Below the pieces are notes generated by a model. The model was not told the origin of the DNA, made no database searches, and saw nothing but the letters and a program-made list of their open reading frames with translations. A program made the translations under genes and the position numbers. A stretch of DNA of 61,113 bases, filler included, from Candidatus Tectimicrobiota bacterium (GTDB lineage Bacteria > JACPSX01), in the NCBI GenBank assembly GCA_016193065.1. It is 6 parts of 6 records of this genome, joined end to end, with 100 filler letters (N's around TTAATTAATTAA, not from the genome) between each part and the next. Parts side by side here need not be neighbours in the genome. Positions count along the whole stretch, not along the records: positions 17,155 to 40,048 come from JACPSX010000255.1; 5 more parts are not named here. One strand, given 5' to 3'. This document shows positions 1 to 56,742 of the stretch, piece after piece. Numbering within the stretch: position 1 is the first letter of the stretch; each line of letters begins with the position of its first letter.

Positions 1-486
1 CTGGCCGGGATGCTGGAGGCCGAAGAGATCGACGCCCTGGTGATGGCCTTCATGCCCTCCGCCTTCATGCGCGGCGCACCTCATATCGGGCGGCTGTTCC
101 CGGACTACCGGAAAGAGGAGCAGGAGTACTTTCGCCAGACCCGGATTTTTCCCATCATGCACACGGTTGTTCTGCACAGGGAGTTCTACGACCAGAATCC
201 CTGGGTCGCCCAGAGCCTCTACAAGGCCTTTTGCCAGTCCATGCGCCTTTGCCAGGAGGTCCTTTACGACACCAACGCCCTGGCCTGCACCCTCCCGTGG
301 CTCATCGCCGAGATCGAGGAGACCCGGGATCTCATGGGGGAACACTTCTGGCCCTATGGAGTGGAGGCAAGCCGGCTCACTCTGGAAACATTGACCCAGT
401 ACAGTTACGAGCAGGGCCTGACCAGCCGCAAATGGGAGGTGGACAGCCTCTTTGCCCCGAACACCCTTAGCGAGTTTAAAACCTAG
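1..486 (+). CDS. 4,5-dihydroxyphthalate decarboxylase-like / ABC substrate-binding-fold protein, 5' partial
   Basis: Motifs 'RLFPDY..E..YF..T.IFPIMHTVV' and 'FWPYGVEA.R.TLE'; the frame runs off the window start. Confidence 0.7.
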   Translation: MAGMLEAEEIDALVMAFMPSAFMRGAPHIGRLFPDYRKEEQEYFRQTRIFPIMHTVVLHREFYDQNPWVAQSLYKAFCQSMRLCQEVLYDTNALACTLPWLIAEIEETRDLMGEHFWPYGVEASRLTLETLTQYSYEQGLTSRKWEVDSLFAPNTLSEFKT

Positions 487-1114
487 AGGGACGCGGACTT
501 CCTTGCGCCGGCGGGCAGGGCAAATCCTGGCCCGCCTCTACAAAGCGTATCCGCAAGCCCGCTGCTCTCTGCGCTTCACCAACCCGTTGGAGCTTCTGGT
601 CGCCACCATCCTCTCGGCGCAATGCACCGACGAGCGGGTTAACCAGATCACTCCCGCCCTCTTCCAACAATTCCCCGCGGCTCAGGATTACGCAAACGCC
701 CCGCGACCGGCTCTTGAAGAGGCCATCCGGCTGGCCGGACTCTACCGTCATAAGGCGCGCCACATCCAGGAGACCTGCGCCATCCTGGTGAACCGATTCC
801 AGGGACAGGTGCCCCGCACGATGGAAGAACTGCTGGAACTGCCCGGAGTGGGGCGCAAAACGGCCAACGTGATTCTGGGGAACGCCTTCGGGCTTTGCAG
901 CGGCGTTGCTGTAGACACCCACACCCGTCGAGTAGCCAACCGGCTCGGGCTTACGGCCTCCGACGATCCCCTCAAAATCGAGCAGGACATGATGGGCTTG
1001 CTCCCGCGAACGGAATGGACACAGATCACCCAATGCGCGGCCCGGGCTCCCCGCTGTTCCGGCTGCCCGCTCCTGGACCTCTGCCCCTACCCCCGGGGCC
1101 GCTCCCGGCGCTGA
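452..1114 (+). CDS. nth: Endonuclease III (HhH-GPD, 4Fe-4S); true start may be TTG at 503; apparent ~10-aa deletion before the Fe-S motif
   Basis: 'LLVATILSAQCTDERVN', 'LPGVGRKTANV', 'VDTH', C-x6-C-x2-C-x5-C. Confidence 0.88.
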   Translation: MPRTPLASLKPRGTRTSLRRRAGQILARLYKAYPQARCSLRFTNPLELLVATILSAQCTDERVNQITPALFQQFPAAQDYANAPRPALEEAIRLAGLYRHKARHIQETCAILVNRFQGQVPRTMEELLELPGVGRKTANVILGNAFGLCSGVAVDTHTRRVANRLGLTASDDPLKIEQDMMGLLPRTEWTQITQCAARAPRCSGCPLLDLCPYPRGRSRR

Positions 1115-1348
1115 CCCCGATCCGAAAATCCCTCTCGCTGCCCTGACGAGGAACACGGAAAAAGGCTACCGATTCGCTCCAGGCGCCCGACGCGCAACGG
1201 ATAGTTTCGGATCGGGGCTGACTCGATCTTCCAGAACCGGACTCCCTGGTCTTCCAAACTCCACCCGGGAAAAAAGGAGCTGGCAGAGGTCTCCCCCTTG
1301 ATTTCCCGGACTCCGTGCCGTTAAGTAATCACAGGGAGAAGAAAAACC

Positions 1349-4535: not shown

Positions 4536-5918
4536 ATGAGTCAGGAAGCGCTCGCTCGACAACCCAACCGCTCCTCCGGAGACGCCCCGACTTACAGGGC
4601 CTGGTTTCAATGCATCGCAGGCTGCCCGGGCACCTACGAACTCAATGAGATTATCTACCAGTGCCCCAAGTGCGGCAATCTCCTGGAAGTCGCCCATGAC
4701 TTGGATCTTCTGCGCCAGAACTCCCCCGGCCAGTGGATGGCCCTCTTTGACATGCGCTACCGGGGGACCGAGTGGCCTTATGGCAGTTCCGTTTGGGGCA
4801 AAAAAGAAATGGTCTGCCCCAACGTGGACAACCGCAACATTGTTTCCACCTACGAGGGCGGCAGCAATCTTTTCTGGGCCGAGCGTCTGGGGCGCGAGAT
4901 CGGCCTGGAAGATCTCTGGATGAAGCTTTGCGGAAACAGTCACACCGGCTCATTCAAAGACCTGGGAATGACGGTCCTGGTCTCCATGGTGAAGCAGATG
5001 ATCTCGGAAGGCGTGCCCATCCAGGCCGTGGCTTGTGCGTCAACGGGGGATACCTCGGCTTCCCTGGCGGCTTATTGCGCCGCGGCGGGAATTCAGGCCA
5101 TTGTTTTTCTCCCCCGCCACAAGGTCTCCGTCCCGCAATTGATCCAGCCGCTGGCCCACGGCGCCCTAACGTTATCCCTGGACACGGATTTCGATGGCTG
5201 CATGAAGCTTGTGCAGGAGATCTGCGCCAAGAACAACATATACCTGGCCAATTCCATGAACTCCCTGCGCCTGGAAGGGCAAAAGACCATCAGCATTGAA
5301 TTGGTCCAACAATTCGACTGGGACATTCCCGACGTCGTCATTGTTCCCGGAGGAAACCTGGGAAATATCAGTGCCATCGGGCGAGGTTTCCTCCTGTTGC
5401 GGAATCTGGGGATTATCTCCCGGCTCCCCCGCCTGGTATGTGCTCAGGCCGAACGGGCCAACCCGCTCTACCGCAGCTACCTCACGGGATTTCGGAAATA
5501 CAAACCCATTAAAGCGAAAAAGACCCTGGCCAGCGCCATTCAGATCGGCAATCCGGTGAGCGTCCAGAAGGCCATTAAAGTTCTGAAAGAATTTGACGGG
5601 ATTGTCGAGCAGGCAACCGAGGAGGAGTTGGCCAACAGTGCAGCCCACGCGGACCGCACTGGACTCTACAATTGTCCACACACCGGAGTGGCCCTGGCTG
5701 TCCTTTCCAAGCTGGTGAAAAGAGGGGTGATTGGTCCCCGGGATCGCGTGGTGGTCATTTCAACGGCGCACGGTCTCAAATTCGCCGACTTCCAGCTGCG
5801 CTACCATTCTCGCCGCCTGCGGGGGATCGAGTCCCGCCACTCCAATCTGCCCGTTGAACTACCTGCCCGGGCCGACCGGATCATGGAAACTATCGTGCGC
5901 CGTCTGGAAAAACCTTAG
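4536..5918 (+). CDS. thrC: Threonine synthase
   Basis: '[10 protein letters not shown]' PLP lysine, '[14 protein letters not shown]', 'PGGNLGN', 'STAHGLKF'. Confidence 0.93.
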
Positions 5919-7104: not shown

Positions 7105-7204
7105 NNNNNNNNNNNNNNNNNNNNNNNNNNNNNNNNNNNNNNNNNNNNTTAATTAATTAANNNNNNNNNNNNNNNNNNNNNNNNNNNNNNNNNNNNNNNN
7201 NNNN
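7105..7204. other. Artificial contig linker (N run with TTAATTAATTAA)
   Basis: 100-nt spacer with six-frame stop linker. Confidence 0.99.
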
Positions 7205-12497: not shown

Positions 12498-13847
12498 TTA
12501 CGATCTTTTCTCCATCAACACCTTCTGAATCTTGACAACGACTTGGGCTACCTCCTGGGCTGTGCCTCCCAGCACCCGCACCATGGCCTCTTTGCCGAAA
12601 TCCCCCCGGTCCCAGATGATCTCCGGGACCTTGCCAAGTGTGTCGATTCCTCTTTGAACTCCCCACTCCAGTGAGGCCCCTTCTCTTTCCTTGAGCGCGG
12701 CGGGTTCCTCCTGGCGGTCGAAGGGCACGACGGAGAGCCCCAGCTTCTGGCAGGCCTCGACGATGTCCGGAGAATAGCGGATGTTCATGGCGGCTCTCAT
12801 CTCGGGGTCGTGCCTCATGGCCGTCAGGATGATGCGGGCGATATGGCGGGAGCCCCCGAAAGCGGGGGGACTCAGGCGCCGGAAGGTGTCCTCCCAGCGG
12901 ATCAGGCGGCCCGGGAAAGCAGCCACCTCCTCGGGGGAAATAGCTCTGGGCAAGGCCATCCCCAGATTCGATTGAACCTCGGGGATCAGGCCTCCGATCC
13001 GGGACTGTTCCAGGAGCTTGACGGCCTGCTCCAGGTTCTCCATGACCTCCCAGCGGTCCCGATAACTGTAGAGATCGAAGAGGTGATGGGTGGGGCCGAT
13101 CCCCTTGCCCACGGGGAAGGCGCTGCGGATGGCTCCGGCGGTGAATTCCTTGGCTCTCCGTACGGACTGCGCGAGGTCCAGACCCCGGGCCAGGAATGCG
13201 GCAATGGCCGCCGAGAACGTGCAGCCCGTCCCATGGGTGTTTTTGCTGGGGATTCGGTCCCCCCGAAAATGGATGATGCGGTTGCCGTCGAAATAAATGT
13301 CGATGGCCTCTCCTTCCAGGTGTCCCCCTTTCACCACCACCGCGCAGCCACTGCCCTCGTGGATGCTCCGGGCTGCTGCTTCCATGTCCGCGATTGTGGC
13401 CACCTTCCGGTTGGCGAGGATCTCGGTTTCCGGCAGGTTCGGGGTGATGATCGTAGCCAGAGGAAGGAGCAGCCGGATCAGGGTCTCCCGGGCCTCGGGT
13501 TGCAGGAGAGGGTCGCCGCTTTTGGCCGCCATGACGGGGTCCACGACCAGGCACTTCAGTCGGTACTGCCTAATCTTTGCGGCGACGGCCTCGATGATCT
13601 TGCGGTTGGAAAGCATCCCCGTCTTGAGGGCGGCCACGTCCAGGTCGCTCAAGACCGAGTCGAGCTGCAAGGCCACGAAGGGGGCCGGTAGATCCTGGAC
13701 CCCCTGGACTCCCTGGGTGTTCTGGGCCGTCACCGAAGTAATCACGCTGGTTCCGTAGACCCCGAGGGCGGCAAAGGTCTTCAAGTCCGCCTGGATTCCG
13801 GCTCCTCCTCCGGAGTCCGATCCTGCGATGGTCAGAGCGATCTTCAT
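12498..13847 (-). CDS. thiD: Bifunctional HMP/HMP-P kinase fused to ThiN-type thiamine-phosphate synthase (ThiDN)
   Basis: '[18 protein letters not shown]', '[10 protein letters not shown]'; C-terminal 'LIPEVQSN', 'FGGSRHIAR', 'GKEAMVRV'. Confidence 0.92.
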
Positions 13848-16605: not shown

Positions 16606-16627
16606 CACTTGTGGCTGGAAGGACCTT

Positions 16628-16725
16628 GGAACGATTCCCTACGCTGGCATTACCCAGATCAGGTTCTAGGGGTCACCCCGATGTGCAGGGTTTCTCAGCC
16701 GCAAGTGGCTCCCCCACTGGCTAGT
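16628..16725 (-). ncRNA. TPP riboswitch
   Basis: Minus strand GGGGAGCC...GGCTGAGA...ACCC..GAACCTGATCTGGGTAATGCCAGCGTAGGGA upstream of thiamine genes. Confidence 0.95.
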
Positions 16726-17054: not shown

Positions 17055-17154
17055 NNNNNNNNNNNNNNNNNNNNNNNNNNNNNNNNNNNNNNNNNNNNTT
17101 AATTAATTAANNNNNNNNNNNNNNNNNNNNNNNNNNNNNNNNNNNNNNNNNNNN
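17055..17154. other. Artificial contig linker
   Basis: N run with TTAATTAATTAA. Confidence 0.99.
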
Positions 17155-32082: not shown

Positions 32083-32207
32083 TGCCCAACCTTTACCAGC
32101 GCCTCGAACAACTGTTGAACCCTTTAAAATCCCCTCTCCCCCGCGGGGGACAGGGACAAGGGGGGTGCTCCGTCTGTACACACCCTCTTTCTAACTCACC
32201 ACACTAG

Positions 32208-32380
32208 TCCCCTCGATACCCCGTCCCATCACGTGAAGCTGGGTCCCGGGGGCATCTAATCCCAACTGTCTGGGCGTGCCTTCTCATTCCCCCAAGGAGG
32301 TGAACCTGCCAAGTTCATTCAGAAACAACGTCCCTTCGCGCGCGGGAACATCACAAAGCTATTTTTAAGCCTGACCCTTT
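32208..32380 (-). repeat. RAYT-derived mini-element copy 1 (low-coordinate inverted end missing)
   Basis: Core AAGTTCATTCAGAAACAACGTCCC at 32311; degenerate transposase 5' codons; tail AAGCCTGACCC. Confidence 0.85.
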
Positions 32381-32427
32381 CTTTCTTTTGCTTTCTTGCT
32401 GGAGCCAGTTGTTAGAATCAGATATGG

Positions 32428-32652
32428 TCAAGACGCCTTTTCCAGACGCTCTGCGACCCAGACTTTGATAATGGCTTGGCGAGGCACACCCAAACGTTTA
32501 GCCTCTTTGTCCAATAAGTGAACCATCCACAGAGGAAAATCTACATTCACTCTCTTTTGCTCTTGCCCCGGCCTCCTTGCTTTTGACATATCAAGATATT
32601 TGGAAATATCCTCACCCTCGTCAAACTTCTTATCAAATTCACGCGCTTTCAT
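32428..32652 (-). CDS. CopG/BrnA-like RHH antitoxin
   Basis: 'MKAREFDKKFDEGEDI..YLD', 'RVNVDFP.WM...LD.EA.RLGV.RQ'. Confidence 0.85.
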   Translation of the reverse strand: MKAREFDKKFDEGEDISKYLDMSKARRPGQEQKRVNVDFPLWMVHLLDKEAKRLGVPRQAIIKVWVAERLEKAS

Positions 32653-32902
32653 ATATATCAACCTCCTCCTTTCGCGACCGCCTCACGGAAATAATTCTTA
32701 TCTTTTCCCCCCGATGCGTTACGACTCCTGACCAGTATCTTCCTTCGATCTTGCCGATTACTATGAATCGCGGTTCATCGCTGGTTTTCGCAGGAATCTC
32801 CATGAAATCAGGATCGTCCCAAAGCGCCTGGGCTTCATAGAAATCAATACCGTGTTTTGTCTTATTGGCTTGGCTTTTCTTAGGATCGAACTCAAATTCC
32901 AT
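32639..32902 (-). CDS. brnT: BrnT family toxin (DUF497)
   Basis: 'FEFDPKKS..N..KHGIDF', 'IRIISVRR'; own promoter TTGACT-N16-TATAGT just upstream. Confidence 0.9.
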   Translation of the reverse strand: MEFEFDPKKSQANKTKHGIDFYEAQALWDDPDFMEIPAKTSDEPRFIVIGKIEGRYWSGVVTHRGEKIRIISVRRSRKEEVDIYESA

Positions 32903-33106
32903 CGTATAATTACTATACCTTTTATATACCAGTAGTCAACCTGCTAAATTCTTTTCTAACATATTCAAGGATGGAGCAACACGGTTACGGATCGTAATGA
33001 CGGCAAAGGATCAGTCAGGCAGGTGGATGGAAAACGAGAAGGTCAGCGAAAAATAATCAGGTTCAGAGAGGCAGCACTACCGTGAAGCGGTTTCGTTCAA
33101 CGTGAA

Positions 33107-33436
33107 TTAGGCAGTAGCTTGCTGCTGCCTTTGTTTCCGCTGCTGAAGCCATCGCTCGAATGAGGCAGCATTTTCTGCGGACTTTTTGCCAAGCAACAAT
33201 CCCTCAACACCGATATCCTCGTCGGGATCAGGCCAATGGATCCCGTAGCCTGCGCCGTTGATCTGAAGATTGGCGCGCTCGGCTGGTGTGCCCTGGGCCA
33301 GACGTGGATGCCAGCCGATGGGAACAGAGATCGTGCGCCCGTCTTCGAGATCTACGGACAGGGAATTTTCTGTAACCATCACGCTCACAACTCTAGTCAG
33401 TGTGAGTGTAACCGCCGCAGAATGCATCCCATTCAT
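33107..33436 (-). CDS. DUF2442 family protein (putative antitoxin)
   Basis: 'LEDGRTISVP..W.PRL', 'GIHWPD.DEDI.VEGLL.G'. Confidence 0.85.
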   Translation of the reverse strand: MNGMHSAAVTLTLTRVVSVMVTENSLSVDLEDGRTISVPIGWHPRLAQGTPAERANLQINGAGYGIHWPDPDEDIGVEGLLLGKKSAENAASFERWLQQRKQRQQQATA

Positions 33437-33510
33437 TTCTCAGGACCTCCAGATTCTCACGGATAACGCGCTCAATGTCGCGCAACTCCTTGCGAGTATG
33501 GCGAGTTGAT
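33393..33510 (-). pseudogene. 3' remnant of a DUF4160 family gene
   Basis: 'RKELRDIERVIRENLEVLRNEWDAF' overlapping the DUF2442 start; 5' part replaced next to repeat copy 2. Confidence 0.65.
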
Positions 33511-33537
33511 AAAACAGCCTCCTTCTTGGAGAACGGG

Positions 33538-33680
33538 GCTGGGTCCCGGGGGCATCCAACATCGACTGTGTGGGCATGCCCTTTCATTACCCCACCCCAA
33601 GGAGGTGAACCTATCAAGTTCATTCAGAAACAACATCCCGTCGCGCTGCAAACATCGAAAAGCTATTGTGCAAGCCTGAC
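33538..33680 (-). repeat. RAYT-derived mini-element copy 2 (truncated)
   Basis: Core at 33616; GGGTCCCGGGGGCATCCAA...GGGCATGCCC; tail GCAAGCCTGAC. Confidence 0.85.
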
Positions 33681-33745
33681 TGTATGCCACTCCTCTTTGT
33701 AAACGCCAGCTAGACGCGTCCTTTTCCACTGTGGTCCAAGACAGT

Positions 33746-34032
33746 CTATTTGCCACTAGCCAAGATCGCGCTCAGGGCAGATTTGATCGCTTCAAGCGGT
33801 TCCTGCTTGAGAACGCCAACCTCTGCTACTATGAGAGCCGAATTTGCCGTGAACAGTTTTGACGGACGGACATAGCTCTCGATTCGCAGAGACCCAGACC
33901 GAAAGCTTTCGTCGGTCAAGCGAATCGCGTGAGGATCGCCGTACGGATTGCTGGTGATCTGACAGAGGATCCAGTCGTCACGTCCCGCCTCGGCGAGGAC
34001 AGGACTACCGCTCCCGCTGCAGATGGGACCAT
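33746..34032 (-). pseudogene. MazF/PemK family toxin, frameshifted by an internal deletion
   Basis: MVPSAAGAVVL, then a frame change to VLAEAGRDDWILCQITSNPY...SYVRPSKLFTA...; the family's FPFSD...RPA segment is absent. Confidence 0.8.
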
Positions 34033-34226
34033 GCAGCGTCCTCCTCGGGTCGGTTCCAGTCCTGCGCCAGTGCGGGTTCGCTCAGAAGGGACGACTCGTG
34101 GACACCAGCGTCGGCGGGATCATCGAGGATCATCACAAAGGCACGACGCGTGCCCAGCAGCTTGACCGACTCGAGGAGGCGAACGTTACCTTGCTCGTCA
34201 ACTACGGCTTCGATCGCTCTAACCAT
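34005..34226 (-). CDS. Putative antitoxin partner of the MazF-like toxin
   Basis: 'LLSEPALAQDWNRPEEDAAWSHL'; overlaps the toxin start. Confidence 0.75.
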   Translation of the reverse strand: MVRAIEAVVDEQGNVRLLESVKLLGTRRAFVMILDDPADAGVHESSLLSEPALAQDWNRPEEDAAWSHLQRER

Positions 34227-34272
34227 GAGGCGCCTCCTGACACATTATACCATAGCATGGTAAGCGCGAAGG

Positions 34273-34480
34273 AAAAGGGGGACGTTGTTGCCGGGTGCAC
34301 GACCTTCGTCCCCTCGATACCCTGTCCCATTACGTGATGCAGCGTCCCGGGGGCATTCAATCTCGACTGCCTGGGCATGCCCTCTCATTACTCCAAGGAC
34401 GTGGACCCGTCAAGTTCATTCAGAAACAACGTCCCCTCGCGCCCGGGAACATCAAAAAGCCATTTTGCAAGCCTGATCCT
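34273..34480 (-). repeat. RAYT-derived mini-element copy 3 (complete short form)
   Basis: GGGGACGTTGTT (34277)...AACAACGTCCCC (34436); minus frame from ATG 34378 reads MPRQSRLNAPGTLHHVMGQGIEGTKV; tail GCAAGCCTGATCC. Confidence 0.9.
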
Positions 34481-34565
34481 TTCCAGACCCTTTTCCTGGC
34501 ACTCAAAAACAGCTCGATAAATCTATCGCGGATTCTTACAATCAACTTTATAATTTGCAACCGAA

Positions 34566-35372
34566 ATGAAAAGGCGATCTTCCCTCACGGCCGGCCAGTT
34601 TATCGAAGAGCTCCTGGGGCAGGGACGCTACACGTTCGCCCGGGAGGAGGCAGAGCGACGCCTCGGAACGTCGCAGGCGGCCGCCTACATGACCCTGCAC
34701 CGCCTGGTCAAGGCGGGTCGCTTGGTCATGCCCCGGTCCGGGTTCTACGTCATCGTGGACCCGCAGCACCGCGCCGCCGGTACCTTGCCCCCGGAGTGGT
34801 TCATCCACGAGCTCGTGAAGGGCATGGGAAGGCCTTACTATGTCGGCCTGCTGTCGGCTGCCCAGATACACGGCGCGGCGCACCACCGCCCTCAGGAGTT
34901 CCAGGTTGTGATCCCGACGCGGACCATCCGGCCGATCCGCGTGGGGAACGTGCGGATCCGCTTCTTCGGCAAAGGGCCGTTCGACTGCTCCGAGACGGTC
35001 GAGGTCAAGACACCCACGGGCTTCCAGAAAGTGTCTACGCCCGAGACCACGGCCTGGGACTTGGTCCGCTATCCCAGAGCCGCCGGGGGCCTCGGGAATG
35101 TGGTCACGGTGCTCTCCGAACTGGAGGAGCACCTGGACGTGGCCAAACTCCGCAAAACGGTCAGGCGGCACGATGATCTCCTTGTGGCGCAACGACTGGG
35201 CTACCTGCTCGACCAGCTAAGCCGCAGGGACCTCACCAGGGGACTGGCTGACTGGGTCCAGAAGGAGGACGCCCCACTCCGTCCTCTAGATCCGGCCTTG
35301 CCCGTCGCGCGGGGCTCGGAGAGCCGGAAGTGGCACCTCGTGATCAACGCTGAGCTGGAGCCCGAGGCGTGA
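34566..35372 (+). CDS. abiEi: Type IV TA antitoxin, AbiEi family
   Basis: 'GRYTF', 'GFYVIV', 'YYVGLLSAA..HGAAH', 'VSTPETTA.DLV'. Confidence 0.85.
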   Translation: MKRRSSLTAGQFIEELLGQGRYTFAREEAERRLGTSQAAAYMTLHRLVKAGRLVMPRSGFYVIVDPQHRAAGTLPPEWFIHELVKGMGRPYYVGLLSAAQIHGAAHHRPQEFQVVIPTRTIRPIRVGNVRIRFFGKGPFDCSETVEVKTPTGFQKVSTPETTAWDLVRYPRAAGGLGNVVTVLSELEEHLDVAKLRKTVRRHDDLLVAQRLGYLLDQLSRRDLTRGLADWVQKEDAPLRPLDPALPVARGSESRKWHLVINAELEPEA

Positions 35373-35908
35373 TCCCCCAGGCCGCCATCACCCACTGGCG
35401 GAACGTGGCACCCTGGCCCCAGGATGCGCAGGTCGAGCAGGACCTTATCCTCTGCCGCGCCCTGATCGAGATCTTCCGGGACACAGATCTCTCCAGGCGC
35501 GTAATTCTCCGAGGCGGCACGGCCCTGTATAAGCTCTACGCGCCCGCCCCGCTGCGCTACTCCGATGACATTGACCTGGTCCAGCACGCACCCGAGCCCA
35601 TCGGATCCCTTTTAGACGGCCTCCGGTCACGGCTCGACCGGATCCTGGGGACTCCACGGCGGGAGAACAATCCCGATAACGTGACCCTGCGCTACCGCAT
35701 GGAGTCCGAAATCCCGCCGGTGGTGCCCCTGCGTCTCAAGATCGAGATCAACACCCGGGAGCACTTTGACGTGTACGGAGTGGTCGTGCGTCCCTTGGCT
35801 GTTCGGTCGCCCTGGTTCAATCTCGCCTCCCGCCCGTTCAATGATGATCTGCGGCTGTGTGAGCCCTTCCCCCCATTTCCCCAAAAGCAAGGGCATGTAG
35901 CCCGATAG
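35369..35908 (+). pseudogene. abiEii: AbiEii nucleotidyltransferase toxin, C-terminally truncated
   Basis: 'QVEQDL', 'RGGTAL.KL', 'RYSDDIDL', 'LKIEINTREH'; recognisable similarity stops at 'RSPWF' (~35818); no K..A...R...RD..D motif. Confidence 0.75.
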
Positions 35909-35933
35909 CGGCCAGTCCCTTCGTCGGTAGCGA

Positions 35934-35991
35934 ACAGGGGGAGGTTGTTTCCGGGTGGACGGCCTTCCTTCCCTCGATACCCCGTCACATC
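35934..35991 (-). repeat. RAYT-derived mini-element copy 4, first half
   Basis: GGGGGAGGTTGTTTCCGGGTGGAC...CCCTCGATACCCCGTCACATC. Confidence 0.8.
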
Positions 35992-36084
35992 AGTCAGAAG
36001 GAAGTGGAAGATTATCTCGGCATGCACTACTCGACGGTGAGTAAGCTTTTAGCAGTGCCAAGATCCAAGGACCTGACCCTATGA
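35992..36084 (+). pseudogene. 3' remnant (HTH) of a second Y1/RAYT-like transposase
   Basis: Reads SQKEVEDYLGMHYSTVSKLL..., ending across ACCTGACCC. Confidence 0.6.
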
Positions 36085-36480
36085 CTTCTATGACTTGCTG
36101 CTTCGGGTCCCTTTGGAAACCTTGACCGACCGGGAGCTCTGTGAGCTTGCTATTGCCGAAGCTGTTGACCTCACCGCTTGTGCCCGGGAGGAAATGCCAG
36201 GCATGTACGTAGTGCACGACAGAAGGGCGCTCGTGGCTAGGCTCCAAGAGCGCCGCGAGAAAGTGCGAGCTGCACGGTCAGATAGAAAGGCCACCATTGC
36301 TCTGTGGCTGTCACTTCTCAGCCTCGCTGCCGCCGTTGCGAACACCATGATCAACGTGTTTGCTCAAGTACCTCGCAGGCAAGTGAGGGATCCGGGTATA
36401 CCTTACTTAATTTGTTACCCTCCTTGCTTCCATCGGGCCTGGCTTCTGCCACCTCAGTGTCCGCTCTACGACCAGCTCCA

Positions 36481-36680
36481 GCATCCAATCTGGACTTTCT
36501 GGGCAAGGGCTCTCTTTACCCCCGAGGAAGTGAACCTTGGAAGTTCATTCAGAAACAACGTCCCCTATCGCTGGTGACGTCCCCTATGGCTGGCCCAGCG
36601 CATTGCCAGCGCGGGCAGGCCAGAGGCGAATCCATTCTCCAAGCAGCAAAAAGCAATTATGCAAGCCTTCTCTGACCCTT
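36481..36680 (-). repeat. RAYT-derived mini-element copy 4, second half
   Basis: GCATCCAATCTGGACTTTCTGGGCA; core at 36541; tail GCAAGCC..TCTGACCC. Confidence 0.8.
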
Positions 36681-36724
36681 CCCTGCTTCCTGCTGTGGGT
36701 TAGGCGCCTCCACCTTTTGACTGT

Positions 36725-37246
36725 TCATGGAAAGAACTTTGCAAACTCCTCGAGGTCTTTGGCGAATGTCGGATCGGCACGGCTTTTCCGTTTTGCGTCG
36801 ATAACCGAATAATGAAGTCGGAAGAACGTCCGCGCTTCGCTGCCAAAGAACGCCTTCGCGGTTGCTGCATCACAAATATCGCTGCGTACGCAAATTTGCA
36901 GAACGCCAAAAAAGTCGATGACGGCAAGGACGTCACTCGTCAGCTTCTCATTTTTTACAACAGTGCGAACAAAACTCACCCATTGATCTGTTCGTAACTT
37001 GGGATCATCAAGAAGCGCATCCATTCGTGCTTCGTATTTGAGCCAAGCGTTTGTTATTCGTTGCCAGCTGTCATATGTTGGTGGTTTATGGAACCTCTCG
37101 ACGAAGGACAGACTTTCCTTTACGCGGTCGGCTTTTTCTTTTTCCAAGTACTGGTATCCTGCAAATATTCCTCCAATGAGGGCCCCTATCACCGTAACAG
37201 CTATGCCAACTATTTCAGTGATGGTTTTCCATTCGTCAAGTTTCAT
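36725..37246 (-). CDS. Hypothetical protein with N-terminal TM helix (DUF4760-like)
   Basis: Lower-GC ORF, TM 'IVGIAVTVIGALIGGIFAG', 'IDFF..L..C'. Confidence 0.65.
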   Translation of the reverse strand: MKLDEWKTITEIVGIAVTVIGALIGGIFAGYQYLEKEKADRVKESLSFVERFHKPPTYDSWQRITNAWLKYEARMDALLDDPKLRTDQWVSFVRTVVKNEKLTSDVLAVIDFFGVLQICVRSDICDAATAKAFFGSEARTFFRLHYSVIDAKRKSRADPTFAKDLEEFAKFFP

Positions 37247-37254
37247 AGCATCCC

Positions 37255-37527
37255 CTATTTGCATCCTGGGAGATCGGGCTTCTTGAGACAGGGATCAGGT
37301 AGTTGTAGGACGTCCGGAGGCATTGGCTTATCCTTCGAGGGAAATTCCGGCTTCTCCTTTGAAGGAGGCTCCTTTCCCTTTTCGGGGAGTGCTTTCTCAG
37401 GAGCGCTTTTTCGGGGCGATTCGATTACAGGCCTGTCCTTGGAAGGCTTCTCCTGGGCATAGGAGGCCGTTGGGGTGACGATAAACATTCCAACCACACA
37501 AGCAAGAATAGCCAACCGCAGTTCCAT
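37255..37527 (-). CDS. Small secreted Pro/Lys/Glu-rich protein
   Basis: Signal peptide (ASYA), repeated (E)KPSK/PPSK units, terminal 'DPC..K..LPGC'. Confidence 0.6.
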   Translation of the reverse strand: MELRLAILACVVGMFIVTPTASYAQEKPSKDRPVIESPRKSAPEKALPEKGKEPPSKEKPEFPSKDKPMPPDVLQLPDPCLKKPDLPGCK

Positions 37528-37613
37528 TTCGTTGTCACCCCCGGGTTTCAGGTTTCCAGGTCCGACAGCAAGGAGGGCTCCTGGCAATCCATAAGTAAGC
37601 GCCTCACGGGACG

Positions 37614-37896
37614 AAAGGGGAACGTTGTTTCCGGGTGAACTGAAAGATATCGCTCAGGACCCAGAAGACCATCGGATCGAGCCGCCCGGACAACCGCGGA
37701 GGCCGTCACGCCTGGAAACCGAGCCACCTGTGCTCCAGGATACCCCATCTTGCCTAACTTCCCTCGATACTCCGTGCCATCACGCGATGCAGGGTCCCAA
37801 GGGCATCCCCAATCTCGACTGTCTGGGCATGTCCTCTCATTATCCCAAGGAGGTGAACCTATCAAGTTCATTCAGAAACAACGTCCCCTATCGCGC
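37614..37896 (-). mobile_element. RAYT-derived mini-element copy 5 (long form: internally deleted transposase)
   Basis: Both inverted ends present; N-terminal MPRQSRL...LHRVMARSIEG joined to C-terminal GKMGYPGAQVARFPGVTASAVVRAARS. Confidence 0.8.
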
Positions 37897-37904
37897 GCCG
37901 ACAA

Positions 37905-37984
37905 TTCAATTCCTTCCCCCCGGGTACCCTCTGGGTGCGGGGAAGGGCGGGATGGGGGTGTTCTTCCAAATCAGAGCGGAATCA
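37905..37984. repeat. Second local repeat (REP-like), copy A
   Basis: TCAATTCCTTCCCCC...GGATGGGGGTGTTCTTCCAA(A/G)TCAGAGCGGAAT, also at 39075-39167. Confidence 0.75.
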
Positions 37985-38085
37985 CTTCCAGAAACGATCT
38001 CGTTGCTATAGCGAAGAGTTTTTCGTCAACGGAGTTTTCTGCTCTTGACAGCCCGTGGCCTCATAGGTGGCTGGAGTGCCACCGC

Positions 38086-38319
38086 TTATGGCTTGGAGCG
38101 GCCTGGTAGTGCCGAGATCACGGAGCGCAGTAGGGTGTTGACGGACTCCGACGACTCGAAGACCTCTGCGACGTCCGGATCAAGAACAACCGCGATCGTC
38201 CCAGCTCCCATCTGAGCGGCAAAGCGGTTGGGTTTGGCCTTCGTGTAATCGAAGCGATATTCCCGACGCATCTCTTCGGAAAGAACCGGCGATTTCTTAC
38301 GAGCTGACGTTTTCTTCAT
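38086..38319 (-). CDS. Putative antitoxin partner of BrnT
   Basis: 'EMRREYRFDY.KAKPNRFA', 'VLDPDVAEVF.SSESVN..LR'. Confidence 0.8.
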   Translation of the reverse strand: MKKTSARKKSPVLSEEMRREYRFDYTKAKPNRFAAQMGAGTIAVVLDPDVAEVFESSESVNTLLRSVISALPGRSKP

Positions 38320-38584
38320 AGTCCTGGCGTTCCCTCCTTGTCGCTTTCCGTGCACTAAAGATGCGGATCGACGCTCCCCGAGCGGTGAAGCATACTAACA
38401 GCAGACGATGCTGCGTCGAATGTCCAATGATGATTTCGCGCTCTTCCTCACTTGAGTGATCCTCGTCGTCGAAGATGCGGGCGAGAGGATCCGAAAAGGC
38501 CGTGAGACCCTCTTCAAATGAGACGCCATGCTTCGCGAGGTTTGCGGCAGCCTTCTTTGGATCCCATTCGAAGCGTAAACTCAT
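38297..38584 (-). CDS. brnT: BrnT family toxin
   Basis: 'FEWDPKKA.ANL.KHGVSFEE', 'DHS.EEER', 'IRIFSARKAT'. Confidence 0.9.
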   Translation of the reverse strand: MSLRFEWDPKKAAANLAKHGVSFEEGLTAFSDPLARIFDDEDHSSEEEREIIIGHSTQHRLLLVCFTARGASIRIFSARKATRRERQDYEENVSS

Positions 38585-38923
38585 TGCCAGTTTGAAATCC
38601 TACCGCCTCTGTGAAAACTTTCAAGCTCTCCGAGCGGGACGGTTGAAGACACTCTATTGAGTATACTGGTCTGCATAGCACGGTTGCCGAAACTTCCCAC
38701 AACAGCCATGATTCTCTTGCCTTTCCAAGGAGTTGTCAAGGCATCTTACCCTTCGTCTCCTGCCGAAATACCCCACACGACGTGTAGCGGCTGCCCCTCG
38801 TGATCATGTTGTAGAACCAGAACACACGGTCCCTTCGAAATCATGCTCACTGAGACCCCTTCCCGAGCATCCCGCTTGGTAAACCCAGGTCGATCCCAAT
38901 AATCTTTAGGGAGCAGACCTCAT

Positions 38924-39061
38924 ATGAGATTTTACACCAAACAGCACCTACAATACTGCGGAATCCCTCTGCGCGCCCAGGCCGTGTACGTCTGCATCCC
39001 GGACCAGGAGGGCGAGATGGAGTTCCATAGAAACATGCCAGACAGCCGCAGTTTTGACTAG
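38924..39061 (+). pseudogene. IS110 family transposase 5' remnant
   Basis: MRFYTKQHLQYCGIPLRAQAVYVCIPDQEGEMEFHRNM resembles the family N-terminus (YCGIDLH...), with Pro at the catalytic Asp position; truncated. Confidence 0.75.
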
Positions 39062-39074
39062 GCTCGGAATCGGC

Positions 39075-39167
39075 TCAATTCCTTCCCCCTCGATGGGGGA
39101 AGGTGTGCAGACCGGAGTCAAGGGTAAGGGCAGGATGGGGGTGTTCTTCCAAGTCAGAGCGGAATTA
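39075..39167. repeat. Second local repeat (REP-like), copy B
   Basis: CCTTCCCCC-TCGAT-GGGGGAAGG hairpin plus the 3' extension shared with copy A. Confidence 0.75.
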
Positions 39168-39249
39168 CCCCCAGGATTGAGGTCGTCTTCGAGGCGAGGA
39201 GTTTTTCGTTCAGGGAGTTTTCTGCGTTTGAAAGCCGGAATCCTTGCGG

Positions 39250-39410
39250 AAAGGGGGACGTTGTTTCCGGGTGGACGACCTTCGTCCCCTCGATACCCTT
39301 TCCCATCACGTGATGCAGGGTCCCGAAGGCATCCAATCTTGACTTTCTGGGCATGCCCTCTCATTACCCCTAAGGAACGCAACCTGTCAAGTTCATTCAG
39401 AAATAACGGC
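39250..39410 (-). repeat. RAYT-derived mini-element copy 6
   Basis: GGGGGACGTTGTTTCCGGGTG at 39253, core at 39389; minus frame MPRKSRLDAFGTLHHVMGKGIEGTKV. Confidence 0.9.
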
Positions 39411-39574
39411 CTCTGTCCTTCCCGGGCTGTTGAGTTACACCCCTCCCCGGAGGGATACCCCTGCGCTTCACCACATCCGGTCGCCCGGATGCAGCGGGAG
39501 CCCGCTACATGGCTCTCTGGTGATTACCACGACCGGACTTCCACTGGTACGTTGTCAGTGCCTTTCAGGGCAAA
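39411..39574 (-). mobile_element. Probable group II intron 5' fragment (domain I start)
   Basis: Minus strand TTTGCCCTGAAAGGC...CCAGTGGAAGTCCGGTCGTGGTAATCACCAGAGAGCCATGTAGC resembles bacterial group II intron 5' ends; no RT ORF. Confidence 0.5.
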
Positions 39575-39585
39575 TGAATGCGTTG

Positions 39586-40048
39586 CTAGGTTGCCGGCCC
39601 ACTATCCACTAGCCTCCATATGGCTTCCGAGTCGACATTGAATGTGACTAGCAAGTCAAGAAGCTCCCGAATTCGCGAGTACACCCCGTTCTCCCTGGTC
39701 CTAAGCGGAAACCGAATAGGACGAACACCCAAGATTTCCAAATCACGATCGAATAGACTTCGGAACATCGCGTCTCGCTCAACCTCGTCGATCGATCGCG
39801 GCAAGAACGCAAAGTGCCTGTGCGACGACACTGGTCGCCCGAGTCGAAGAAAACGTCGGACGTTGGGATCGGTCATCGAGCTGCCGACGAACACGCACGT
39901 CGATTGGGACAGGTATCCAATCAAGATGACGTCGGGCCACGCGTAAGGCGTGCGGGAGTGTTGGAAGTAGTCATCTTCCCCAAGGACGAGCTGGGTCACA
40001 GGGCCACCACCAAGCCTGAGATAGCCGTGCGGGTGTACAACGGGTAGC
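39586..40048 (-). CDS. SIR2-like (SIR2_2) domain protein, 5' partial
   Basis: 'LPVVHPHGYL', 'LVLGEDDY', 'CVFVGSSMTDPNVRR'. Confidence 0.8.
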
Positions 40049-40148
40049 NNNNNNNNNNNNNNNNNNNNNNNNNNNNNNNNNNNNNNNNNNNNTTAATTAA
40101 TTAANNNNNNNNNNNNNNNNNNNNNNNNNNNNNNNNNNNNNNNNNNNN
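40049..40148. other. Artificial contig linker
   Basis: N run with TTAATTAATTAA. Confidence 0.99.
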
Positions 40149-53340: not shown

Positions 53341-53440
53341 NNNNNNNNNNNNNNNNNNNNNNNNNNNNNNNNNNNNNNNNNNNNTTAATTAATTAANNNN
53401 NNNNNNNNNNNNNNNNNNNNNNNNNNNNNNNNNNNNNNNN
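53341..53440. other. Artificial contig linker
   Basis: N run with TTAATTAATTAA. Confidence 0.99.
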
Positions 53441-56642: not shown

Positions 56643-56742
56643 NNNNNNNNNNNNNNNNNNNNNNNNNNNNNNNNNNNNNNNNNNNNTTAATTAATTAANN
56701 NNNNNNNNNNNNNNNNNNNNNNNNNNNNNNNNNNNNNNNNNN
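56643..56742. other. Artificial contig linker
   Basis: N run with TTAATTAATTAA. Confidence 0.99.

Follow-up and report, generated by a model that had tools for sequence, protein, structure and literature searches.

The stretch of DNA examined here, referred to as the window, covers 61,113 nucleotides (nt) of Candidatus Tectimicrobiota bacterium JACPSX01 [GenBank assembly GCA_016193065.1], a metagenome-assembled genome (MAG; designated G000) of 294 contigs and 2.9 Mb that is 86% complete. Six contigs of the MAG (C231, C232, C233, C235, C237 and C238) make up the window and are chained by linkers of the form N44-TTAATTAATTAA-N44 at positions 7105-7204, 17055-17154, 40049-40148, 53341-53440 and 56643-56742. 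As the contigs are artificially joined, genes flanking a linker are not neighbours. Contig C233 corresponds to window positions 17155-40048 and includes a Bat/VWA operon whose last position is 32082. From there to the contig end, the final ~8 kb (32083-40048, minus strand) form an island in which small units of toxin-antitoxin and defence genes are separated by short repeats. The initial annotation had interpreted the units as former integron cassettes, and both the nature of the repeats and the standing of this interpretation are considered here.

Most cargo genes of the island are on the minus strand, with the abiEi and abiEii genes on the other. The first unit, U1 (32428-32902, minus strand), includes a gene for a BrnT toxin (32639-32902; BrnT_toxin, E-value 6.9e-27) and one for a CopG-type antitoxin (32428-32661), the CopG_antitoxin match (E-value 1.1e-5, 26.5 bits) being slightly below the cut-off of 28. 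A gene predicting a DUF2442 protein (33107-33436, minus strand; E-value 4.8e-21) is next, and the partner gene 5′ of it is cut by one of the repeats (R2, see below), leaving a 45-aa tail (33396-33530) with no Pfam match. Two small open reading frames (ORFs) with no family are listed between this unit and an AbiEi antitoxin gene with a truncated AbiEii toxin gene (34566-35908, plus strand; AbiEi_1, E-value 1.7e-35). The AbiEii portion (35369-35908) covers profile positions 6-127 of 238 and ends ~30 nt before another repeat (R4, from 35937). Unit U6 (36725-37587, minus strand) is composed of a gene for a DUF4760 protein (36725-37264; E-value 1.2e-9) together with an ORF of 110 aa that matches no family. 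A second BrnT toxin gene (38297-38584; E-value 5.5e-28) and a downstream 89-aa partner, for which there is no Pfam match, form a further unit at 38086-38584 on the minus strand. A SIR2_2-like gene (39586-40048, minus strand) completes the island. Its frame is open upstream to the contig end, and ORF 39586-39999 (E-value 1.3e-6) covers profile positions 55-130 of 141. None of the cargo units is duplicated elsewhere in this genome.

Repeats of one family, designated R, are found at seven places on C233, three on C207, three on C73 and one on C292, and all seven copies on C233 share one orientation, on the minus strand. R3 (34277-34436) is a complete copy of 160 nt, and R7 (39253-39412) is also complete but has a diverged left terminal inverted repeat (TIR). 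Both are arranged, on the minus strand, as a left TIR, a leader, an ATG with the first 26 codons of a gene, and a right TIR. R1 (32207-32334) is a miniature copy with no right inverted repeat, R2 (33498-33639) is a truncated variant, and R4 (35937-35992) and R5 (36481-36565) are a right-TIR fragment and a left-end fragment, respectively. R6 (37617-37888) is a longer deletion derivative that keeps the first codons of a transposase gene and its last 35 codons, which include a helix-turn-helix (HTH). The first 26 and last 35 codons are all that the window retains of the R-family transposase.

The full-length counterpart was found in metagenomes. A 22-mer from the conserved end of R occurs unchanged in 102 metagenome stretches, and at two of these loci, L074 and L017, it lies within 23-nt TIRs that surround a gene for a 330-aa protein; 23-nt inverted repeats are seen in L074 and in R3 and R7 alike. 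Y1_Tnp is recognised in the proteins predicted at both L074 and L017, with 38.9 bits for the L074 protein against a cut-off of 23, and the C-terminus shows a weak match to Bac_DnaA_C (E-value 6.5e-4, 20.1 bits) that is below the cut-off of 31.5. The 26 codons of R3 match the 330-aa protein of L074 at 20 of 26 aa (E-value 1e-13), and the last 35 codons of R6 match it at 22 of 35 aa (E-value 5e-11). As N- and C-terminal codons of the transposase persist in R copies, the repeats are deletion derivatives of a TIR-bounded HUH transposon. The repeats between the cargo units are nested remnants of Y1-HUH transposons flanked by TIRs, either copies with internal deletions or solo ends. Such transposons are known as TIRtrons and encode TIR-associated tyrosine transposases, TIRYT (Di Nocera et al. 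2013, PMC3733652). TIRYT have been placed in subclass 2.1 of TnpA-REP (Quentin et al. 2018, PMC6006769). The initial annotation had called the repeats RAYT-type HUH elements, after the tyrosine transposases associated with repetitive extragenic palindromic (REP) sequences; the HUH derivation stands, but the elements are TIR-bounded TIRYT derivatives and not REP-type RAYT repeats.

The resemblance to TIRtrons, as these are described in the cited passages, extends to a Y1-HUH transposase with a putative C-terminal HTH that weakly resembles Bac_DnaA_C, to a gene located between TIRs that start with GGGG and have no REP hairpins, and to ends that form moderately abundant, often clustered repeat families. 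Unlike the TIRtrons of those passages, the window includes deletion derivatives and solo ends only. The TIR of R (GGGGACGT...) agrees with the GGGGWSAS sequence given there at 6 of 8 positions. REP/RAYT systems and REPINs are similar to the island elements in having related HUH Y1 enzymes and short non-autonomous repeat families, but differ in their 20-40-nt palindromes headed by GTAG or CGTC, whereas the ends here are 23-nt TIRs and the miniature copies keep coding fragments.

A second TIRYT family, represented by the end sequences TIR-A and tail A, is interspersed with the first. A solo TIR-A end is at 32347-32377 (plus strand) and recurs near 33647-33680 and near 34448-34479, whereas the C-terminal remnant at 36596-36678 is longer. 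Tail A adjoins many R copies and overlaps the C-terminus of the transposase gene of its own family; the 15 copies in the genome are all fragments. The TIR of this family is GGGGTCAG..., and some copies fit GGGGWSAS, as given in the passages cited, over its full length. No full-length transposase gene of either family was found in this genome. The only Y1_Tnp matches in the genome, on C67 and C217, were examined as a source and rejected, as they are of other types and have no sequence relation to the repeat. A 30-aa C-terminal HTH remnant at 35992-36084 (plus strand; weak HTH_3 match, E-value 0.006) may belong to a third TIRYT-like gene, to judge by resemblance only.

The end sequences are conserved over very large distances. 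A 21-mer of tail A was found in 58 stretches of genomes that span many phyla, with host labels that include Gamma-, Beta-, Alpha- and Deltaproteobacteria, Acidobacteriota, Clostridiaceae and Bacteroidota, and in several of these genomes it is followed by short tandem pieces of the same word. Both this 21-mer and the 22-mer of R are identical at every position in hosts that are only very distantly related.

A reading of the R repeat itself as a long attC site was rejected. GTT is on its 5′ arm and AAC on its 3′ arm, the reverse of attC, and the transposase fragments that it encodes also rule this out. Complete R copies do not fold into structures that are more stable than those of shuffled sequences (z-score -0.5 to -1.6).

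The case for cassettes made in the initial annotation was based on heptamers resembling the R′ and R″ boxes of attC at the ends of units, and all of the motifs that it quoted are present. GTTAGAA, an R′-like 5′ boundary, is at 32954-32960 (minus strand) upstream of the U1 promoter, and TTCTAAC, R″-like, is at 32411-32417 (minus strand), 10 nt past the copG stop codon, and is followed by AACTG-GCTCCAGC. Read on the minus strand, 32960-32954 and 32417-32411 are complementary at 7 of 7 positions and the pair has the canonical form. GTTAGAA occurs 69 times in the 2.9-Mb genome and three times in the 61-kb window, all within the 772 nt from 32189 to 32960. We estimate the probability of a perfect bracket of the GTTRRRY type at any of the ~8 units of the island at roughly 0.002-0.005, and the U1 pair is the only quoted pair that exceeds the chance level. 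The L″-like box proposed downstream of U1 has no partner, and the DNA that follows TTCTAAC folds worse than shuffled sequences (z-score +2.06); for 32185-32420 the z-score is +1.05.

The remaining quoted boundaries fared less well. U6 is preceded by GTGAGGCGC (37599-37607, minus strand) and the DUF4760 unit is followed by the R″-like GCGCCTAAC (36699-36707, minus strand), and the two are complementary at 8 of 9 positions, the one mismatch turning the conserved GTT into GTG. By our calculation, ~0.4 inverted repeats of 9 nt with at most one mismatch are expected per unit between two 60-nt flanks, so this pair is not beyond chance, and the DNA past GCGCCTAAC folds worse than shuffled sequences (z-score +1.12). 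ACCTAGC at the end of the SIR2 gene, also proposed as a core, has neither an AAC core nor a partner and is not core-like. No such bracket was seen at the other units. The reported closeness of repeats to these boundaries is accurate, the distances from 32411, 36699 and 37607 being 33, 20 and 9 nt, respectively.

Heptamer cores are weak evidence by themselves, and those of U1 acquire meaning only from intact cassettes found elsewhere in the same genome. An intact integron integrase gene is located on C77 (TIGR02249, 377.9 bits, cut-off 265). The predicted protein shares 44% identity with IntI3, and the 5′ end of the gene is at the contig edge. A census of 4478 gene units, in which GTTNNNN was required ≤120 nt upstream and its exact complement ≤45 nt past the stop codon, returned 23 bracketed units, against 15 in a reversed-orientation control. 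The BrnT/CopG unit was skipped in this census because the gene caller had chosen a spurious ORF; its flanks bear the same signature. Five census units, on C7, C48, C73, C188 and C206, have GTTAG or GTTAT cores. For the units on C188, C7 and C206, a hairpin starts at the downstream core and has GTT at its end; on C48 such a hairpin lies upstream of the unit. The C188 hairpin (-18.1 kcal/mol) includes bulged bases and has z-scores of -2.4 and -3.1 on the two strands; that on C7 has a free energy of -21.9 kcal/mol, and that on C206 a z-score of -7.8. Genes of these bracketed units are typical accessory genes that predict GIY-YIG, FRG and ankyrin proteins. These five units are cassette-like and carry attC-like sites, and four of them (C7, C188, C206 and C73) are backed by hairpins.

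An attC-like repeat with a perfect 14-bp stem, family X, was found on C73 (30-85), C206 (3970-4035) and C131 (4530-4585). Approximately 30 nt after its final GTTCAAG are conserved, such that the same DNA follows at the three places; this could be a repeated next cassette or some other element at the crossover point. In the window, family X has no match at ≤3 mismatches. C131 also carries GTTAGGC twice in direct orientation, 1.28 kb apart (4579-4585 and 5860-5866; 180-186 and 1461-1467 in L187), an arrangement reached in 2 of 200 shuffles. The stop codon of a gene for a 142-aa protein lies within one copy, the other opens an intact family-X hairpin, and a tail-A transposase remnant is located between them. 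Short C-terminal fragments on C188 (103-252), C131 (7310-7486), C73 (1162-1245) and C48 (22097-22231) match the integron-integrase model with E-values of 1e-6 to 1e-18. These matches are below the cut-off, and the fragments share contigs with attC-like sites and tail-A ends. The arrays beside the integrase genes of six distant genomes, which are on short contigs, gave no clear repeats.

One contig brings the two kinds of element together. On C73, a gene for a 258-aa protein is bracketed by GTTATCT and AGATAAC, and its stop codon is followed by AGATAAC-CTATAA-GGAATGAA, which is homologous to the first 22 nt of family X. A composite of tail A and R, as in the window, starts directly after this. 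The attC-like repeat is thus cut by a TIR composite 15 nt past its first core, or 22 nt when the heptamer is included.

Together with the nature of the repeats, and with the integrase and the attC-like cassettes on other contigs, the C73 junction forms the basis for reading the island as the promoter-distal end of a decayed cassette array in a chromosomal integron, or of a cluster with no integrase, that was invaded and eroded by TIRtrons. We rate the chances of this reading as even. Both the past of the island as an array and the role of the U1 cores as cassette boundaries are inferred. The cargo units are toxin-antitoxin and defence genes with promoters of their own. Since nearly all non-coding DNA of an array is attC, surviving insertions fall in attC with no need for targeting, which is the simpler account. 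Insertions and later deletions would have stripped the hairpin arms, leaving the BrnT/CopG unit with just its two complementary 7-nt cores, and the loss of the arms would have frozen the cassettes in place. As for the individual units, it is reasonable to read BrnT/CopG as a former cassette in which attC has been replaced, given its bracket, the integrase in the genome, the hairpin-bearing cassettes and C73. The same claim does not carry over to the other two quoted cores, which are at chance level, and no attC hairpin was found in the island.

The island shares several features with sedentary chromosomal integron arrays and clusters of attC sites lacking integrases (CALIN), namely small and mostly co-oriented units, rich in toxin-antitoxin genes that have promoters of their own, an integrase encoded on another contig of the genome, and one unit with complementary R′ and R″ cores. 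It differs from them in that the defining attC hairpin is missing from the island and that C233 and the integrase are on separate contigs.

A number of results weigh against an integron past. Only one of the ~8 island units has a perfect bracket, and by our estimate a few tenths of a U1-like bracket are expected by chance in a genome of this size. The third GTTAGAA of the window (TTCTAAC at 32189-32195, minus strand) is not an independent attC core, because it is part of a repeated module, M, that is also present on C113 and reads differently in the sister genome G001. No hairpin precedes the GTTAGAA at 32960 (32950-33110, -7.6 kcal/mol, z-score +0.86), and the putative R″-L″ stretches of the window are single-copy in the genome. 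A thermodynamic hairpin scanner at standard settings found no site in the whole window and none on C233 between 14800 and 22894, and a rule-based scanner returned four sites in the island with none at a cargo boundary; both scanners were custom-made, and weak or atypical attC could escape them. One family-X cassette on C73 has no upstream partner heptamer. Finally, a search for overlaps between contig ends revealed none that joins C233 to C77, the integrase contig.

On a class 3 integron, used as control, the thermodynamic scanner detected the two known attC and one extra site, and the rule-based one recovered both attC. Elsewhere in the genome the thermodynamic scanner reported sites on C7, C48, C73, C157, C188, C196 and C206. 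With the requirement relaxed to AAC/GTT only, it found none in the island and one in the window, at 12971-13041, outside the island, compared to a background of 31 sites in 1.05 Mb. Alignment of nine attC-like sites yielded no consensus structure, the AAC/GTT pairs being the only invariant positions. At 38024-38143, the last part of the second antitoxin gene and its terminator-like hairpin (-20.7 kcal/mol, z-score -1.9) lie between CGTCAAC and GTTGACG, which are complementary at 7 of 7 positions. This structure was rejected as an attC because it is branched and has its start 53 nt within the gene.

The lack of an attC-like hairpin in the island is also what would be expected if this were an ordinary junkyard of toxin-antitoxin and defence genes with no integron past, in which TIRtron remnants have accumulated in tolerant intergenic DNA and the heptamers are due to chance. 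This main alternative is less likely than the array reading. In its favour, two of the three cores that were quoted do not exceed chance, and the third GTTAGAA belongs to a repeat module. In addition, R-family ends elsewhere adjoin genes of all kinds: of 70 outer neighbour ORFs, 23 could be assigned to a Pfam family, and 8 of these 23 are toxin-antitoxin or defence genes. The others include genes for a D-Ala-D-Ala ligase, OmpA, a peptidase and a dehydrogenase, and many are housekeeping genes. Against it stand the perfect bracket of U1, which has the canonical form, the occurrence of this signature at hairpin-bearing cassettes of the genome, the composite copy on C73 that cuts an attC-like repeat, and the intact integrase.

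The mechanism put forward in the initial annotation was that HUH elements target or replace attC hairpins. In a form restricted to this lineage, TIRYT transposons would prefer extruded attC hairpins, and the removal of the hairpin arms would lock toxin-antitoxin and defence cassettes in place; we regard this as unlikely. If it were true, a conflict between two systems that act on single-stranded DNA would immobilise a cassette array and leave it as a fixed island of defence genes. The general form, in which HUH transposons specifically recognise and enter folded attC hairpins, appears slightly less probable again. Within this genome, YCTAAC lies ≤60 nt from 4 of 15 TIR-A ends, at 20-54 nt, against 60 of 4570 ORF ends, a difference with a nominal P of ~4e-5 in a test set up post hoc; this association also speaks for the array reading. 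One composite is inside an attC-like repeat (C73), and in a single case, the metagenome contig L069, the left end of a full TIRtron (1534-1555) lies ~190 nt past the stop codon of an integrase gene (445-1341, plus strand) that is 70% identical to that of this genome. Both systems are also known to act on single-stranded DNA, as discussed in the cited part of PMC7923331.

The wider samples do not bear out targeting. In other genomes, GTTAGR was found ≤70 nt from 1 of 68 distinct tail-A (TIR-A) ends. In metagenomes a single one of 86 distinct R ends had it within 70-75 nt, compared to 2 when the control strand was scored, and the looser GTTRRRY gave 5 against 3. General attC targeting is therefore unsupported, as ends in the wider sample are rarely near attC cores. 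The neighbours of R-family ends include the D-Ala-D-Ala ligase, OmpA and peptidase genes mentioned above. The spacing between core and TIR is not constant in this genome, ranging from 15 to 54 nt, and, with the low counts in the other samples, insertion at a fixed position in the attC of many arrays was not observed.

It is highly improbable that the co-oriented miniature TIRtrons act as composite single-strand transposons that move the intervening genes, in a cassette-like system run by an HUH transposase rather than an integrase: all seven C233 copies are co-oriented and each complete copy has both ends, but most copies are truncated, the single-copy state of every cargo unit holds here too, and the genome encodes no full-length transposase of either family, the Y1_Tnp genes on C67 and C217 being of other types and all tail-A copies fragments.

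Invasion of cassettes by mobile elements has precedents. The IS1111-attC group consists of elements that invade attC. In these and in group IIC-attC introns, as proposed for the island, a mobile element is located in the attC of a cassette, and the element and attC are both said to need folded or single-stranded DNA. They are a DEDD transposon and a retro-element, respectively, and are site-specific, whereas the island element is a Y1-HUH transposon with no general preference for attC. That group IIC-attC introns invade attC is described in the cited part of PMC3001079. A further parallel is ISHahl1, an IS200/IS605 element that adjoins a CALIN in Halorhodospira halochloris and is, like the elements described here, an HUH single-strand transposon beside a toxin-antitoxin-rich cassette array (PMC7923331). 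Its authors, in the passage cited, raise the clustering of elements that depend on single-stranded DNA. According to the same passage, ISHahl1 differs from the island elements in being past the last attC, in having hairpin ends and TnpB, and in not replacing an attC. The cited part of PMC6006769 makes no mention of TIRYT positioned within attC-like sites, and the term integron is absent from its wording. Judged by title and abstract, none of the papers in the searched library that mention both a REP-associated tyrosine transposase and an integron deals with this subject.

TIRYT/TIRtron elements are widespread yet almost unstudied, the name TIRYT appearing in three papers of the searched library. 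If TIRtrons erode attC sites, this would provide a route from integron cassettes to fixed chromosomal genes, and would account for cassette-like toxin-antitoxin islands that are invisible to attC-based tools such as IntegronFinder.

A synteny check against the sister genome G001 found no DNA match for the flank of the Bat operon. Several further modules of the island recur in the genome. A 45-aa ORF at 38924-39058 (plus strand) sits in a module that is repeated on C164, C196 and C292; its apparent resemblance to the N-terminus of an IS110-type transposase had no Pfam support and was set aside. Short modules at 37902-37967, 37936-38069, 38654-38754 and 39122-39236 recur on many other contigs (C27, C48, C73, C126, C131, C137, C164, C187, C196, C277, C287, C291 and C292), and some of them carry promoter-like TTGACA boxes. 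The Mur-ligase and CapC genes after 40149 are separated from the island by a linker and are not adjacent to it. The sole match in an Rfam scan of the window, outside the island at 16619-16725 (minus strand), is a thiamine pyrophosphate (TPP) riboswitch (RF00059, 70.5 bits).

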